Shown: positions 76 to 6,043, counted from the stretch's first letter. The stretch is DNA of 7,056 nucleotides from a virus (IMGVR_UViG_2706794681_000016), one strand, 5' to 3'. Notes: generated by a model from the letters alone, not told the origin. Translations and numbers: made by a program.

Positions 76-588
76 GTTGGCAGCATCACCGGGGGCGCAG
101 ACCCTGATTATGTTATCTGGGCGAAAGAAGTTCAGGGTATTAACCGTGCATGGACTTTCAGACACTGGAAAGGCACTGGAACGGTTGGCGTGATGGTGGC
201 GACAAACGATCCGGAACGCCCGGCCCCGGATGAAAGCGTGATTAACGCAGTCAGGGACCACATCCTTCCTCTGGCACCTGTTGCCGGAAGCGGATTGTAT
301 GTATTCGGTGCCACAGAAAAAGTCATCCCGATGACGATTGCATTATCGAAAGACACACCGCAGATCAGGACTGCAATAAAAGCAGAGCTGAATGCACTGA
401 TGTTACGGGATGGTGTGCCAGAGGGGCGTATGTATCTGTCCAGAATCAGTGAGGCCATCAGTTTGTCTGCTGGTGAAGTGGCCCACCGGTTAATCGTCCC
501 TTCATCGGATATTGACCTGGGGGAGACCGAGCTTCCGGTGCTCGGCGAGATCACCTGGCAGGCTTATGACCCGGCAAGGAGTAAATAA
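76..588 (+). pseudogene. baseplate J-like protein, C-terminal fragment (5'-truncated)
   Basis: Frame 1 is open from 76 to TAA 586-588 and reads ...GGADPDYVIWAKEVQGINRAWTF..., which I recognise as the conserved C-terminal region of P2 gpJ / Mu gp47 baseplate proteins. There is an in-frame TAA at 73-75 and no ATG/GTG/TTG before GTG 190, so at most ~170 codons of a normally ~300-370 aa protein are present. Family call is from memory. Confidence 0.5.
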
Positions 589-1178
589 TGGATTCGTTAC
601 AGGATGATTATACAAAGCTGCTGTACGGACTGATGCCGCCGGGGCCTGCATGGTCAGATACCGACGGTGTACTTGACGGTCTGGCACCATCGCTTGTGCG
701 TGTTCACCAGCGGGCTGATGAACTGGTGATTGAAATCGATCCCGGTCAGTCCACAGAGCTGATTGAACGTTATGAAGAATTGTATGGTTTACCTGATTCC
801 TGTTCCCCTGTCGGAACCCAGACATTACGCCAGCGTCAGCAACGTCTTGAAGCAAAAGCCAATGTGGCTGGTGGCATAAATGAGCAGTTCTTCCTGGATC
901 AGCTTGAGGCGCTGGGATATACCGGCGTAACGATCGAACAGTTCCAGCACTTGGATGCAAGCCCCGATCCGGAATGGGGAGATCGCTGGCGTTATTTCTG
1001 GCGTGTGACGTTGCCGATGGATGCCGGTGCTCAGTGGCAGACATGCACGGACGCCTGCAACACACCGATCCGGACGTGGGGGGATACGGTTGCGGAGTGC
1101 GTGATTAATAAATTATGTCCGTCACACACCGTCGTTTTATTTTCCTATCCAGATGAGGATGAAGATGCACAGGATTGA
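588..1178 (+). CDS. phage tail protein, Mu gp48 / DUF2313 (YmfQ-like)
   Basis: 196-aa ORF; ATG 588 overlaps the upstream stop (TAATG) with AAGGA 9 nt upstream. The product (MDSLQDDYTKLLYGLMPPGPAW...YEELYGLP...) resembles the DUF2313 tail proteins that precede the fibre gene in Mu and e14-type tail modules. Position between baseplate J and the tail fibre fits. Confidence 0.7.
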   Translation: MDSLQDDYTKLLYGLMPPGPAWSDTDGVLDGLAPSLVRVHQRADELVIEIDPGQSTELIERYEELYGLPDSCSPVGTQTLRQRQQRLEAKANVAGGINEQFFLDQLEALGYTGVTIEQFQHLDASPDPEWGDRWRYFWRVTLPMDAGAQWQTCTDACNTPIRTWGDTVAECVINKLCPSHTVVLFSYPDEDEDAQD

Positions 1179-2205
1179 TACGCTGACTGCGGTAAAAGAT
1201 AAGTTTGGTCCGGGTAAGAACGGATTTACTGACGGAAATCTTCGCACAGGACGTCTTGCTACCTGGCTGAACAGTGCCATGTGGAATGCCATTCAGGAGG
1301 AAATCTGTGGTGTCATTGAGAAGGCCGGGATAGAACTGAATAAAGAAGAACACGACCAGCTATATAAGGCTATATTATTGCTGGTGGGCGGTGCAATTAA
1401 CGAAGAGGCATTGCTGATAAAAAATAACCTTTCGGATGTGGAAGACAGGGATGAGGCTGTTGAAAACCTCGGATTAAAACCCACGGTGGATAAGGCAAAA
1501 AATGCCGTTCAGCGTGATGGCGACACCATGACCGGAGAGCTGAAAATCCGTGGTGTTAATGCGCTGAGGATTTTCAACGAAGCTTTTGGCCTGATTTTTC
1601 GTCGTTCGGAAGAGTGCCTGCACCTTATTCCCACCAGTGAAGGTCAGGGGGAAAATGGCGATATTGGTCCCCTGCGCCCGTTCACCATTAATCTGCGGAC
1701 GGGTGAAATATCCATGTCGCATAAAGTGTCTGTTGGCGGTGGTTCGCAGGTCAATGGTGCGCTGGGTATCGGCGTTCAGAACGCCCTGGGGGGGAATTCA
1801 ATTGTTCTTGGTGATAATGACACCGGATTCAAACAGAATGGTGATGGCCTGCTGGATGTTTATGCCAATAGCGTGCATGTGTTGCGTTTTCAGAGTGGCA
1901 GTATCCAGAGTAATAAAGCTGTAAACGTTACAGGACGGGTAACACCGTCAGACTACGGAAACTTTGATGCCCGTTACCAGCAGCGAAATGGTGGCGTGCA
2001 GGATGTGCGGTATGGTTATGAAATGTATTACCCCCCCGGCAGTAACACCGTTTCGTGGACATTTCGCTCACCTTCGGGACACGGGCTGTCAGGGATATCG
2101 ATATCGGATACCGGCCGTAACTCAGCGGATAACGTCAACGGCGTGTATTACCGACCGCTGCAAAAACTGATTAATGGCACCTGGTATAACGTAGCGAGTA
2201 TTTAA
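1165..2205 (+). CDS. tail fibre protein (P2 gpH / Mu S-like C-terminal receptor-binding region)
   Basis: ORF open from 1153; ATG 1165 is preferred because GAGGA lies 5 nt upstream (1153 and 1159 are alternatives). The C-terminal segment ...ALGGNSIVLGDNDTGFKQNGDGLLDVYANS...INGTWYNVASI matches the conserved distal motif of P2 gpH-type fibres as I recall it; the N-terminal ~60 aa resemble a fibre attachment domain. Confidence 0.8.
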   Translation: MHRIDTLTAVKDKFGPGKNGFTDGNLRTGRLATWLNSAMWNAIQEEICGVIEKAGIELNKEEHDQLYKAILLLVGGAINEEALLIKNNLSDVEDRDEAVENLGLKPTVDKAKNAVQRDGDTMTGELKIRGVNALRIFNEAFGLIFRRSEECLHLIPTSEGQGENGDIGPLRPFTINLRTGEISMSHKVSVGGGSQVNGALGIGVQNALGGNSIVLGDNDTGFKQNGDGLLDVYANSVHVLRFQSGSIQSNKAVNVTGRVTPSDYGNFDARYQQRNGGVQDVRYGYEMYYPPGSNTVSWTFRSPSGHGLSGISISDTGRNSADNVNGVYYRPLQKLINGTWYNVASI

Positions 2206-2207
2206 CA

Positions 2208-2753
2208 ATGTTGCATTTAAAAAATATTACGGCAGGTAATCCGAAAACCGCGGAATAATATCAGCTGACAAAACAGTATGATGTCACCTGGCTTTTTTCG
2301 GAAGACGGCAAAAACTGGTATGAAGAACAGAAGAACTTTGCCAGTGACACCATAAAAATGGTTTACACCGGAGACGGGCGCGTGGTGTGGGTCGGTAAGG
2401 ATGTGACAGGCATTGAACCCCGTAACGCCAGTGTTATTGAAGTTCCTGATATTACCGCCAACCGCCGCATTACCGCGCCGGGTTACTGGTTTTACCGCAA
2501 TGATGAATTTGTCTTTGACTACAGACTCAAAGCGGAAGATGAGCGTGATGCCCTTCTGGCTCAGGTCAGTGCCCGGACAGGGGAATGGGAAGAAGACCTG
2601 CTGCTGGGGCTAATCAGCGACGAAGACCGGGAAAAACTGAAAGCGTACCGTATTTACGCGAAATCGCTGCAGGCGATGGATTTCAGCACCATCACTGATA
2701 AATCCTCATATAACGCCATTGAATGGTCCGTCTCTCCGGAAGGTTCTTCCTGA
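2208..2753 (+). pseudogene. tail fibre assembly chaperone (Tfa family) with in-frame TAA at codon 17
   Basis: ATG 2208 lies 2 nt after the fibre stop and reads MLHLKNITAGNPKTAE, then TAA at 2256-2258, then continues in the same frame as YQLTKQYDVTWLFSEDGKNWYEEQKNF... to 2753. Both the N-terminus and the C-terminal ...IEWSVSPE match the TfaQ/TfaR/lambda-Tfa family from memory. The largest uninterrupted ORF is 2358..2753 (131 aa) with no obvious RBS. Confidence 0.6.
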
Positions 2754-2776
2754 TTTAATTTATCGCGAGAAAAACT

Positions 2777-4045
2777 ATGTCTGTAGTGATATCAGGTGCG
2801 CTGACTGATGGCGCAGGCATCCCCATGTCCGGATGCCAGATTATTCTGAAATCCCGTGTAAACACCTCAGAAGTGGTGATGCGTACCAGGGCTGATGTAG
2901 TGACCGGAAATAACGGTGAATATTCGTTTGAGGCACAGGTCGGAAAATATTGCGTGTATCTGAAACGGGACTGGCGCGACGAGTACTGTGTTGGCGACAT
3001 TGCTGTATACGACGACTCAAAGCCCGGCACGCTGAATGACTTTCTGATTGCTCCTGATGAGGGCGACCTGAAACCGGATGTCGTCAAACGCTTTGAGGAA
3101 ATGGTGGCGCAGGCGCAGCAGAGCGCCGGGGCCGCAGCCGGAAACGCACAGCAGACGGCGCAGGATGTGGCGGCAGCCGCAGGTTATGCCCGCGCAGCAG
3201 AGCAGGCCAAAAATGACATTGATGCTGCGCTGACCGGCACTCTGAAAACGGCTAACCATCTGTCTGAAATCGCAGCAGCAGGCGAAAAGGCACAACAGAA
3301 GTCCCGGGATAATCTGGGGCTGAAAAGTGCGGCCACGATGGAAGCACAGAGCGACATTTACGACCGGACAAAAGGCCGTCTGGCGATACCCGGCGCATTC
3401 GGCTTTGGGTGTGCTTTTCTGCCTGAAGATGTTATCCGTTTTGACACTAAGAGTGATTTCCTGGCCTGGGTAAGGAATGCGCTGCCAGGTGAATATTCCG
3501 TTGCTGGCCCCTACGACATCATCATACCCGACACACGGTTTGAAGGGGTGCTCAGCATCCGGTGGACTGATGCACGCCCTGAGACAACAGAACCGAGGTA
3601 CAGAGCCAAATCCCTTACTTTTTACGGCATTAACGGCCCCATTTATCACACCCGCTACTGCTACTGGCCCATATCCAGACTGACTGGCTGGGTGAAAATA
3701 AATATAACCACAGAAGATATTATTTACAGAATCGTGGCGAGCTCTGTCTGCAACAGATGGGGAGACCCTGACATTGGCGGGCTGATTATTGCTGCGTACC
3801 AGGGAGAAGCTGACGGTGATAAAGTCATCAGACTTGTCAGGGGGCAGTCATACAGAGGCTCACGACTGGGACCGGTGGGGATTTCAGTGCCCAGTACTCC
3901 CACCGGAACGTATATAGCATCCCCACAATTTTTCATTACGGGATGTTCAGAGCATTCATTACCGGGGTCATATAGCGCCCTGTCCGGGGTGCCGGATGCT
4001 CATGTCTCTGGCGCAATGCCCGGGCTTTTTATTCGCACATCGTGA
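2777..4045 (+). CDS. side tail fibre protein, lambda Stf-like N-terminal domain, Ala-rich shaft, unassigned C-terminal domain
   Basis: 422-aa ORF. The N-terminus MSVVISGALTDGAGIPMSGCQIILKSRVNTSEVV...VYDDSKPGTLNDFL parallels lambda Stf (MAVKISGVLKDGTGKPVQNCTIQLKARRN...YEDSQPGTLNDFL) as I recall it. An Ala/Gln-rich low-complexity linker follows (~3100..3300); the C-terminal ~230 aa have no motif I recognise. Confidence 0.8.
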   Translation: MSVVISGALTDGAGIPMSGCQIILKSRVNTSEVVMRTRADVVTGNNGEYSFEAQVGKYCVYLKRDWRDEYCVGDIAVYDDSKPGTLNDFLIAPDEGDLKPDVVKRFEEMVAQAQQSAGAAAGNAQQTAQDVAAAAGYARAAEQAKNDIDAALTGTLKTANHLSEIAAAGEKAQQKSRDNLGLKSAATMEAQSDIYDRTKGRLAIPGAFGFGCAFLPEDVIRFDTKSDFLAWVRNALPGEYSVAGPYDIIIPDTRFEGVLSIRWTDARPETTEPRYRAKSLTFYGINGPIYHTRYCYWPISRLTGWVKINITTEDIIYRIVASSVCNRWGDPDIGGLIIAAYQGEADGDKVIRLVRGQSYRGSRLGPVGISVPSTPTGTYIASPQFFITGCSEHSLPGSYSALSGVPDAHVSGAMPGLFIRTS

Positions 4046-4055
4046 GGAATGCACC

Positions 4056-4785
4056 GTGGAAATTAAAAAAATCATTAATCCCCGTTATACCGAAAGTGGC
4101 GCAGTAGACTGTGACGTTTTTTTTGACGACAGGGACCAGGCAGTCCCCTACACAGCCACCGCTGATGATGTCGCACCGACGGGTCAGCGAATCTGGCAGG
4201 AACTGCAAAGTGGCAAATGGGGTGAGATAGCCCCATTCACTGTGACACCAGAAATGCTGGAAGCGGCCAGAGAGGCCAGACGTCAGGAAATTGAAGCATG
4301 GCGCACAGAACAGGAGGCGAAGCCGTTCACGTTTGAATGGAACGGTCGTATCTGGAATGCTGGCCCCAACTCACTGGGCCGCCTGTCCCCGGTAGTCATG
4401 CTGGCAAAATCTGTCACAGCACAAACNNNNNNNNNNNNNNNNNNNNNNNNNNNNNNNNNNNNNNNNNNNNNNNNNNNNNNNNNNNNNNNNNNNNNNNNNN
4501 NNNNNNNNNNNNNNNNNNNNNNNNNNNNNNNNNNACTCACTGGGCCGCCTGTCCCCGGTAGTCATGCTGGCAAAATCTGTCACAGCACAAACGCATATGG
4601 CGTGGGGTGATGCCGATAATCAGCAGGTGAAACTGTCGATGCCGGAACTGGAAGAACTGGCGGCAGCAATGGTGCAGGCGCAGGTCGATCGCAACGATGA
4701 GATTTATCGCCGTCAGCGTGAAATGAAAGAGGAGCTGAGTGGTCTGGAGGATTTGGGAACAATTAGAGCGTTTGATGTTACGTAA
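4056..4785 (+). CDS. putative tail fibre assembly chaperone (interrupted by assembly gap)
   Basis: GTG 4056 lies 6 nt after GAGGAA (4044-4049). The ORF runs into the N gap in frame 0 and resumes in frame 1 to TAA 4783-4785. Removing the 166-nt offset between the duplicated gap flanks gives one continuous ~187-aa ORF. Function is inferred mainly from its position immediately downstream of a fibre gene; family is uncertain. Confidence 0.5.
4369..4426. repeat. 58-bp direct repeat, copy 1 (left flank of assembly gap)
   Basis: actcactgggccgcctgtccccggtagtcatgctggcaaaatctgtcacagcacaaac is identical to 4535..4592. Confidence 0.9.
4427..4534. other. assembly gap (108 N)
   Basis: Uninterrupted run of N seen directly in the sequence. 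Confidence 0.97.
4535..4592. repeat. 58-bp direct repeat, copy 2 (right flank of assembly gap)
   Basis: Identical to 4369..4426; looks like an unmerged contig overlap. Confidence 0.9.
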
Positions 4786-4831
4786 TTGGTAAGCTGCATC
4801 GTGTTAAATTGTTACCCTTATTTACAACTAG

Positions 4832-4865
4832 AAAAGCCTCTGACTTCATAATCAGAGGCTTTTTT
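4832..4865 (+). terminator. rho-independent terminator (partly bidirectional)
   Basis: Perfect 12-bp stem aaaagcctctga (4832-4843) / tcagaggctttt (4852-4863) with an 8-nt loop, followed by a T6 run on the + strand. On the minus strand the hairpin is followed by TTTTC, so it may also act on transcripts reading through from ssrA. Confidence 0.65.
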
Positions 4866-4866
4866 G

Positions 4867-4882
4867 AAATGCACGTGCATTT
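4867..4882. repeat. perfect 16-bp palindrome AAATGCACGTGCATTT
   Basis: Seen directly in the sequence; lies between the terminator and the ssrA 3' end. Function unknown. Confidence 0.9.
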
Positions 4883-4983
4883 TGCGTGTATATTTTTGTC
4901 TTTTTCTGGTCCGCTTACTGTCTGGTCAGTGTCCGTAAGTGACTGTTTTTATAGTCTCTGTCCGGTTGCAGTCCTGTCAAAAG

Positions 4984-5346
4984 TGGTGGAGCTGGCGGGA
5001 GTTGAACCCGCGTCCGAAATTCCTACATCCTCGGTACTACATGCTTAGTCAGTCTTTACATTCGCTTGCCAGCTGCGGACGGACACGCCACTAACAAACT
5101 AGCCTGATTAAGTTTTAACGCTTCAACCCCAGGCAGGGCTTCCACGCGATCTCTTTTGGGTTTGACCTCTCTTGATCCCCGTCCTAAGAGCGGAGGCTAG
5201 GGAGAGAGGGCTCTAAGCAGGTTATTAAGCTGCTAAAGCGTAGTTTTCGTCGTTTGCGACTATTTTTTGCGGCTTTTTACGAGGCCAACCGCCCCTCGGC
5301 ATGCACCTTGGGTTTCGCAAATCCCGTCGAATCCAGAATCAGCCCC
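4984..5346 (-). ncRNA. ssrA: tmRNA (transfer-messenger RNA)
   Basis: 363-nt minus-strand match to the E. coli tmRNA as I recall it: 5' GGGGCTGATTCTGGATTCGACGGG... to 3' ...GGGTTCAACTCCCGCCAGCTCCACCA. The tag reading frame on the minus strand (plus coordinates 5257..5225) encodes ANDENYALAA followed by a stop. Confidence 0.95.
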
Positions 5347-5560: not shown

Positions 5561-6043
5561 TTAACGGTGGGCGTTTTTCATGATACGTGCTTTATCCACC
5601 TGCCATTCGCGTTCTTTGATATCTGAACGTTTATCGTGCTGTTTTTTACCTTTGGCGACGCCGATTTTCACTTTGCACCAGGCATTTTTCCAGTACAGGG
5701 AGAGCGCCACTACGGTATAGCCTTCTCGATTGACGCGACCGTACAATGAGTCCAGTTCGCGCTGGTTGAGAAGTAACTTGCGGGTACGGGTAGGATCGCA
5801 CACCACATGCGTGGAGGCCACGGCCATTGGCGTGATGTTAGCGCCAAACAGAAATGCCTCTCCGTCACGCAGAAGGACGTAGCTGTCGCTGATATTGGCT
5901 TTTCCTGCGCGCAGGGATTTAACTTCCCAGCCTTGCAGGGCAAGTCCCGCTTCGAACTCTTCTTCGATAAAGTATTCGTGACGGGCGCGCTTGTTAAGCG
6001 CGATGGTCGCTGAACCAGGTTTATGTGCTTTTTTCTTCGTCAT
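5561..6043 (-). CDS. smpB: SsrA-binding protein SmpB
   Basis: 160-aa ORF ([25 protein letters not shown]...IMKNAHR) matching E. coli SmpB from memory; ATG at 6041-6043 (minus) and TAA at 5561-5563; located directly upstream of ssrA on the same strand. Confidence 0.95.

Follow-up and report, generated by a model that had tools for sequence, protein, structure and literature searches.

Two co-directional tail fibre and chaperone cassettes of different families at the ssrA end of a decaying phiP27-like prophage

Introduction

In the G segment of phage Mu (S/U versus S'/U'), the P segment of e14 and the C segment of P1, two fibre specificities share one genomic position, and alternative fibre tips in inverted orientation are switched by the invertases Gin, Pin and Cin, respectively. 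Here we describe a viral stretch of 7,056 nucleotides (IMGVR_UViG_2706794681_000016; its full length is called the window below) in which two tail fibre genes, each followed by a putative chaperone gene, lie in tandem on the same strand. The window holds the right-hand part of a defective phiP27-like prophage that is riddled with IS1 and integrated at ssrA. In our view it is likely to represent the distal end of the late operon of a decaying, phiP27-like temperate myovirus prophage, ending in a portable dual receptor-binding module.

The locus shares with the invertible segments a first fibre and a tail fibre assembly (Tfa) protein homologous to Mu S and U, baseplate genes of the Mu gp47/gp48 (YmfQ) type, and the presence of two fibre specificities at the same genomic position. 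It differs from them in that the second cassette is co-directional with the first, has a complete fibre gene with its own N-terminal anchor and belongs to other protein families, and in that neither an invertase nor crossover repeats accompany it. A closer counterpart is the Stx2e phage phiP27 (NC_003356), in which L54 (fibre), L55 (Tfa), L56 (PF08400 fibre) and L57 (DUF4376) lie at the right end and adjoin attR. Gene order, gene families, right-end position, the Mu gp47/gp48-type baseplate upstream and the lack of an invertase are common to phiP27 and the window. However, the tips of the second fibres are only ~32% identical (71% for the tip of fibre 1), and the phiP27 record gives an 11-bp attachment (att) site that is not at ssrA, where the window prophage resides. 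Moreover, phiP27 is an intact, isolated phage, whereas the window copy has an IS1 in its baseplate J gene and a nonsense codon in tfa.

Structural precedents for the second fibre come from two phages. In Ur-lambda, a collar of twelve StfN domains surrounds the gpV/gpM junction and bears four trimeric side fibres (PMC12617516), and in the Vibrio myophage XM1 six gp40 trimers bind the neck proteins gp4 and gp5 (PMC10457771). The N-domain of the second fibre is homologous to that of lambda Stf (PDB 9e7m). Nevertheless, lambda Stf carries a gp37/Mu S-type tip and uses Tfa, whereas here this tip and Tfa belong to fibre 1, and fibre 2 has another tip and a DUF4376 partner. In addition, the tail here is contractile, so that the docking site used in lambda, at the tube/tip junction, would be under the sheath. 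XM1 is a contractile-tailed phage as well, and in its gp40 (PDB 7kjk) a trimeric coiled coil comes after an Ig-like N-domain that is homologous to the one of fibre 2, but gp40 ends in a tailspike-like C-terminus and has no DUF4376 partner, and the sequence identity is only ~25%. A neck attachment of fibre 2 may be suggested by analogy.

For the second chaperone, the precedents are the Alteromonas phage V22, whose fibre gp26 binds cells only if the DUF4376 protein gp27 is co-expressed (PMC7289586; the DUF4376 assignment also in PMC10579305), and Campylobacter CJIE1, whose H-fibre depends on a downstream DUF4376 gene (PMC7882524). In both, as in the window, a DUF4376 protein of ~190-240 amino acids is encoded directly downstream of the fibre (PMC7289586, PMC7882524, PMC10579305). 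The fibres of V22 and CJIE1 are baseplate fibres, however, whereas here the DUF4376 pair makes up a second, additional fibre. The literature that we found on PF08400 and on dual fibres in Mu-like phages did not address this arrangement.

Results

Two fibre cassettes of different families

The original prediction, made from the sequence, was of two same-strand fibre and chaperone cassettes of different families, and we identified four open reading frames with strong homology at or near the predicted positions. They form the following unit, together with an assembly artefact and a terminator.

1165-2205, + strand: fibre 1, a Mu S-type tail fibre gene with N-terminal anchor and P2 H/Mu S-type tip, intact (phrog_6859, 5yvq_A)
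2208-2753, + strand: chaperone 1, a Tfa/Mu gpU-type tail fibre assembly gene, pseudogene (PF02413, E 7.4e-25; Mu gpU 5yvq_B, E 5.7e-30)
2777-4045, + strand: fibre 2, with a Stf-type "collar" N-domain (residues 1-131), a predicted helical stalk and a distinct C-terminal tip (residues ~214-422), intact (PF08400, phrog_2636)
4056-4785, + strand: chaperone 2, a DUF4376 protein gene, 187 amino acids with the artefact removed (PF14301, phrog_1141)
4427-4592: scaffold-gap artefact, 108 N (4427-4534) and then an exact 58-bp repeat of 4369-4426 (100% identity)
4829-4866, + strand: intrinsic terminator closing the four-gene unit, a 15-bp stem followed by U6 (-20.6 kcal/mol, z -6.55)

Window proteins were searched against Pfam, PHROG and PDB sequences, and a search of five of them against NCBIfam gave no match for any. 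Fibre 1, for which an upstream start at ATG 1153 is also possible, is covered end to end by phrog_6859 ("tail fiber protein", E 5.7e-209) from residue 5 of the reading frame that starts at 1153. Its match to the Mu tail fibre S (5yvq_A, E 4.6e-25) covers both the N-terminal anchor and the tip, with residues 34-101 aligned to S 34-97 and residues 126-349 to S 268-503, and includes the C-terminal ...INGTWYNVAS motif. With the PF02413 and 5yvq_B matches of its neighbour, these results agree with the prediction of a P2 gpH/Mu S-like fibre that has a Tfa-type chaperone. The intact Tfa of a Mu S/P2 H-type cassette is lacking, however: the gene is present and homologous, but its codon 17 is an in-frame TAA (2256-2258, Q17*) where FDAARGOS_944, Escherichia coli C311 and phiP27 have CAA. 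Since two independent complete chromosomes (L005 and L006) carry the same TAA, the nonsense mutation is genuine and has become fixed in this lineage.

The gene for fibre 2 has a separate start codon, and the protein has an N-terminal domain of its own. Residues 1-131 match PF08400 ("prophage tail fibre N-terminal", E 2.4e-63), and phrog_2636 matches the rest of the protein (E 7.8e-205). In the PDB sequence search the N-domain matched lambda StfN (9e7m_Ta, E 4.6e-17, 46% identity) and the XM1 collar spike gp40 (7kjk_A3, E 1.1e-06), and a Foldseek search with the N-domain of an AlphaFold2 model gave TM-scores of 0.85 to 9e7m and 0.61 to XM1 7kjk. This monomer model has a mean predicted local distance difference test score (pLDDT) of 63, with ~75-90 in the C-terminal domain; long helices are predicted in the stalk at residues 100-117 and 136-179, at pLDDT <50. 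Of the BFVD matches that carry a name in the search table, the majority are tail proteins, tail fibres included. The C-terminal domain (residues ~214-422) resembles predicted tail fibres of many phages and the fibre tips of Av-05-like phages, and no convincing solved homologue of it was found (best match phage K gp144, E 0.05). The reading of 2777-4045 as a fibre with a lambda Stf-like N-terminus and a different tip is therefore upheld by the PF08400 and 9e7m matches. The exact protein is indexed in 723 blocks of public assemblies, and close homologues come overwhelmingly from Shigella.

The gene for chaperone 2 looks broken in the window because of the run of N and the 58-bp repeat, which are not biology but two overlapping contig ends joined by a gap; once collapsed, the gene is intact. 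The collapsed protein matches PF14301 (E 1.7e-16, residues 70-174) and phrog_1141 (E 1.6e-87), with nothing meaningful in the PDB sequence search. Its start is most likely GTG 4056, 10 nucleotides past the stop of fibre 2, because this codon aligns with the Met starts of homologues. Identity to the partners in phiP27, C311, Rac-SA53 and FDAARGOS_944 is 70-97%. The N-terminal half of the DUF4376 protein is 95-99% identical where fibre tips are 94-97% identical, and still ~70% identical where tips are only ~30% identical, and thus any co-variation of the protein with the fibre tip appears weak. By the family precedent of V22 gp27 and the CJIE1 protein, this protein may be the chaperone of fibre 2.

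The two chaperones had also been called unrelated. BLASTP found no pairwise similarity between them, or between fibre 1 and fibre 2, but phrog_11571 matches parts of both chaperones: in Tfa it covers residues 10-96, in the N-terminal part, and in the DUF4376 protein residues 52-186, in the C-terminal part. For this reason natural hybrid proteins, with a Tfa-type N-terminus and a DUF4376-type C-terminus, probably exist.

Conservation of the four-gene layout

The same four genes recur in several relatives. Over the aligned 61% of window 91-4426, the DNA of phiP27 is 91.6% identical, and this alignment reaches base 3144. The baseplate and fibre module is syntenic with and close to that of phiP27, and the genes gp46, gp45, gpP, DNA circularisation and tape measure lie upstream in complete chromosomes of the same locus. 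E. coli C311 carries a complete 43-kb prophage at the same ssrA site, between 41-nucleotide att repeats, with the same four genes; it encodes an integrase and an excisionase, its regulation is lambdoid, its head is of the HK97 type and its contractile tail of the Mu type. The four genes also occur in Rac-SA53, as tail1-4, and FDAARGOS_944 has the same module at 98% identity (L001), in a prophage that is not at ssrA. Downstream of the module in FDAARGOS_944 (L001, 24874-27825) we also found an ipaH effector gene with a frameshift, a gene for a SAM methyltransferase and part of a further tail fibre assembly gene. Among 5426 complete E. coli genomes, 105 or more carry the junction from tfa to fibre 2 with a coverage of at least 80%.

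The tandem arrangement is found on at least four contractile-tail backgrounds, which are phiP27-type, Rac-SA53-type, Mu-like (L015) and P2-like (L016). The Rac-SA53-type tail genes include DUF3383 and DUF2612, the latter also a baseplate protein of the Alteromonas myophage V22, a phage that has an XM1-like baseplate wedge protein. In the P2-like tail, fibre 1 has the P2 H N-domain PF12571. In the Mu-like prophage (CP032523.1, 2526472-2543875; genes at 5778-10937 of L015), com and mom directly follow the DUF4376 gene; the inverted S'U' and gin of Mu are absent, and a co-directional cassette of Stf-N fibre and DUF4376 gene stands in their place. SfMu was ruled out as the identity of this prophage, as SfMu has a normal G segment.

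The N-terminal anchor of fibre 1 differs with each tail background, while the distal part of fibre 1, Tfa, fibre 2 and the DUF4376 protein are common to them. Beyond these, a tblastn comparison of phiP27 with Rac-SA53 detected nothing in common. The N-domain of fibre 2 is 82-99% identical among the phiP27-, Rac-SA53- and P2-type backgrounds. Fibre 2 of the Mu-like prophage is 97% identical to that of the window in its tip and only 36% identical in its N-domain, and therefore the anchor and the tip of fibre 2 can swap independently.

The slot after cassette 1 varies between phages: it holds an effector gene and a pin remnant in ST64B and gtr in SfV, and ipaH comes after the module in FDAARGOS_944. 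In ST64B (L011, 6335-7776), a type III effector gene comes after cassette 1, together with a 73-amino-acid pin/gin-like remnant (sb27), which suggests that an invertible segment once filled this slot in the ST64B lineage. In E. coli E200086 (L018, 4708-5427), cassette 2 has been deleted, leaving tfa, the first bases of fibre 2 and a 120-nucleotide 3' remnant of the DUF4376 gene, and then host ydfJ.

Transcription unit, selection and absence of an inversion switch

The four genes are separated by gaps of only 2, 23 and 10 nucleotides. No promoter-like site was seen between the cassettes, and the predicted folds of the junctions at 2205-2208 and 2753-2777 are no more stable than those of shuffled sequence (z 0.26 and 0.47), and neither is terminator-like. 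The intrinsic terminator lies ~45 nucleotides past the stop codon of the DUF4376 gene, whereas SfV, which has cassette 1 only, has an annotated terminator directly after tfa. A second palindrome (ATGCACGTGCAT...) with a T-rich run lies at 4869-4891, just past the main terminator in the right arm of the phage, and is kept in C311.

All four cassette genes are under purifying selection across family members. Among the window, C311, phiP27 and Rac-SA53 copies, the ratio of non-synonymous to synonymous substitution rates (dN/dS) is ~0.2-0.3 for fibre 1, 0.2 for tfa, 0.12-0.46 for the N-domain of fibre 2 and 0.16-0.21 for the DUF4376 gene, with 0.06-0.08 for the baseplate gene gp48. Two possibilities had been raised at the outset, namely that the two fibres are expressed together or that the locus is a recombination mosaic. 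Because of the conservation of the layout, the purifying selection and the placement of the terminator, the best supported reading is that the cassettes would be co-transcribed and both fibres made together. The mosaic view is correct in that the module has been exchanged between unrelated tails, but this is a functional, conserved mosaic and not an accident of this locus.

We found no sign of an inversion switch. With the core pattern AAACCNNGGTTT and at most two mismatches, the window contains five gix-like matches against 3.5 expected by chance, none of them paired. The longest inverted repeats in the window measure 14-27 nucleotides with 73-89% complementarity, and none of them flanks either cassette. 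These searches confirm the predicted absence of crossover repeats, and no serine invertase gene is present in the window. The search for a flanking invertase, made in complete relatives, gave the same answer, as the annotations of phiP27 and of the complete C311 prophage contain none. There is also no alternative fibre end in opposite orientation that shares a common N-terminus, as both cassettes lie on the + strand. On account of the lack of gix-like sites above chance, of flanking repeats and of an invertase in C311 and phiP27, we rejected the reading of the locus as an invertible segment.

Window layout, integration site and decay

Host DNA makes up the right third of the window, and everything to the left of it is phage-derived and on the + strand. 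The remaining features are as follows.

1-90, - strand: end of an IS1 that interrupts the baseplate J/gp47 gene; homology to phiP27-like prophages begins only at base 91
91-588, + strand: 3' fragment of the baseplate J/Mu gp47 gene (PF04865 Baseplate_J, E 3e-08, C-terminal part of the profile)
588-1178, + strand: Mu gp48/YmfQ baseplate wedge gene, intact (PF10076, E 2.3e-25; phrog_203, E 4.8e-73)
4786-5019: right arm of the phage and attR, 93% identical to the right end of the C311 prophage
~4979-5019: att core, overlapping the 3' end of ssrA, placed via C311 homology
4984-5346, - strand: ssrA, encoding the transfer-messenger RNA, the integration target (ARAGORN; tag peptide ANDENYALAA)
5561-6043, - strand: smpB, host DNA

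The matches of the window in 9416 E. coli records stem from bases 1-90. An exact search for the junction of IS1 and J among the GTDB species representatives gave no match. The counterpart of 91-588 in relatives is annotated "baseplate J/gp47 family protein", and the gp48 protein of the window is 98% identical to phiP27 L53. In C311, a 41-nucleotide repeat of the 3' end of ssrA is found at the opposite boundary of the prophage. The host part of the window also includes the open reading frames ratA and yfjF, named after the C311 annotation.

An identical locus is present in complete chromosomes of 4.8-5.0 Mb, where the order is tape measure, IS1, DNA circularisation, gpP, gp45, gp46, J', IS1, 'J, gp48, fibre 1, truncated tfa, fibre 2, DUF4376 gene and ssrA/smpB. 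In these chromosomes an IS1 transposase coding sequence abuts the point at which IS1 cuts J (L005, 6551-7248). The second IS1, between the tape measure and DNA circularisation genes, was seen in the complete chromosomes with this locus (L005-L010). In L006 and L010 (11900-21269), a second prophage comes straight after the DUF4376 gene, where the window has ssrA/smpB; among its phage genes are those for an S24 repressor and for an integrase that contains an Arm-binding domain. This layout suggests tandem occupation of the ssrA site, with ssrA outside the locus viewed.

Owing to the IS1 in the J gene and the second IS1 upstream in the complete chromosomes, the prophage as a whole is defective, and with these insertions and the nonsense codon in tfa the window element cannot make phage. 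The original prediction had taken chaperone 1 to be inactivated, which is borne out by the TAA at 2256-2258, but its suggestion that only cassette 2 may be functional finds no support. This suggestion is moot, because with the IS1 in J and the one upstream neither cassette is likely to serve a virion.

Discussion

The arrangement described here is real but ordinary and already known, as the gene layout was deposited with phiP27 and the locus has been sequenced many times. We propose that the window derives from a temperate phage with an HK97-type head, a Mu-type contractile tail, lambdoid regulation and integration at ssrA, and that in intact relatives the late operon would make both fibres from one transcript. 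Fibre 1, folded with the aid of Mu U/Tfa, would mount on the Mu gp47/gp48-type baseplate via its tail-specific N-terminus. Fibre 2, presumably trimeric and folded with the DUF4376 protein, would use its Ig-like collar domain to mount at a different site. If XM1 is taken as a guide, this site may be the neck, where a sheathed tail has its most accessible six-fold ring. Two receptor specificities would then be displayed at once, as opposed to the either/or of Gin/Pin inversion.

Several observations weigh against this proposal. We found no virion proteomics or imaging of any phiP27-like phage. The neck, sheath and baseplate proteins of phiP27 and Rac-SA53 have no detectable similarity, yet the N-domains of their second fibres are ~89-98% identical, and it is awkward that a near-identical N-domain on unrelated tails should have a specific docking site. 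Two neck proteins of phiP27 gave no match to the XM1 neck proteins in a PDB sequence search. The structural model of fibre 2 is monomeric, and its stalk is of low confidence. In addition, ST64B and SfV carry cassette 1 only, followed by morons. Since these phages do without cassette 2 and deletion remnants of it exist, the cassette is dispensable, an optional add-on in a variable slot beside att.

The last point leads to a different view of cassette 2, as passenger DNA from lambdoid siphoviruses that sits in the variable slot beside att and is not assembled onto the virion; whether or not it is expressed, its conservation would then reflect frequent re-acquisition. The region after cassette 1 is indeed a moron or variable region in ST64B, SfV and FDAARGOS_944, cassette 2 can be deleted, the phage matches of the PF08400 domain are mostly to lambda-like phages, and the same N-domain occurs with unrelated tails. 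However, the N-domains borne by myoviruses form a close group of their own (82-99% identity) that is far from lambda Stf (46%). Within this myovirus set, dN/dS is 0.12-0.46 for the N-domain and ~0.2 for the DUF4376 gene. Cassette 2 also lies inside the late operon, upstream of the terminator, and XM1 gp40 provides a myovirus precedent for the domain as a virion component (PMC10457771). We therefore consider the passenger explanation unlikely. A branched or serial fibre, comparable to LtfA/LtfB of T5-like phages or to branched tailspikes, would instead have fibre 2 attached within the module, to the shaft or tip of fibre 1 or to the bound Tfa. It would fit the finding that phiP27 and Rac-SA53 have only distal fibre 1, Tfa, fibre 2 and the DUF4376 protein in common, and that the module is transferred as one unit whose breakpoints fall inside fibre 1. 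Over its last 50 residues Tfa is, moreover, 80-96% conserved even where its remainder is 44% identical, and Mu Tfa remains bound to the fibre tip (PMC7289586). Nevertheless, both solved cases of the N-domain bind six-fold tube or neck rings and not fibres (PMC12617516, PMC10457771). In the Mu-like prophage the N-domain diverges (36%) beside a nearly unchanged distal fibre 1 (97%) and Tfa (94%), which speaks for an N-domain that tracks the tail and not the module. Attachment within the module is, in our judgement, a little less probable again than passenger DNA.

The remaining explanation is that the cassettes are alternatives chosen by a switch outside the window, be it an invertible segment or some other on/off device. 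The relationship of cassette 1 and the baseplate genes to Mu and e14, which use Gin/Pin inversion, and the pin/gin-like remnant that ST64B keeps downstream of its single cassette, would both fit such a switch. Against it stand the placement of both cassettes on the same strand, the lack of an excess of gix-like sites and of flanking inverted repeats, and the C311 prophage and phiP27, which are without an annotated invertase. In the Mu-like prophage, com and mom come right after the module and leave no room for gin, while the right side of the window is host ssrA and smpB. This explanation is already largely refuted, and we give it almost no weight. Our preferred reading, in which the late operon ends in two fibres that are expressed together, accounts for the locus better than any of these.

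From the comparison of tails a broader idea can be put forward, although only tentatively and at somewhat less than even chances. The Stf-collar fibre and the DUF4376 protein could be a plug-in second receptor-binding module that works on at least three to four unrelated contractile tails by means of a generic ring-binding collar, probably at the neck. These tails may be the phiP27-type, the XM1/V22-like Rac-SA53-type, the P2-type and, with a divergent collar domain, the Mu-type.

In conclusion, the window locus itself is of little significance, being the end of a decaying prophage. On the other hand, the pattern that emerged from the comparison, of a Stf-collar fibre and a DUF4376 protein that ride with a primary fibre cassette across several contractile-tail lineages, in which the pair takes the part of an inversion switch, is of moderate interest for the biology and engineering of phage host range. 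If the plug-in idea is true, such a module would be a "both at once" evolutionary alternative to Gin/Pin inversion, one that occupies the place of S'U' and gin in the Mu-like prophage, and it would act as a chassis-independent adaptor that adds host range to myoviruses and tailocins.

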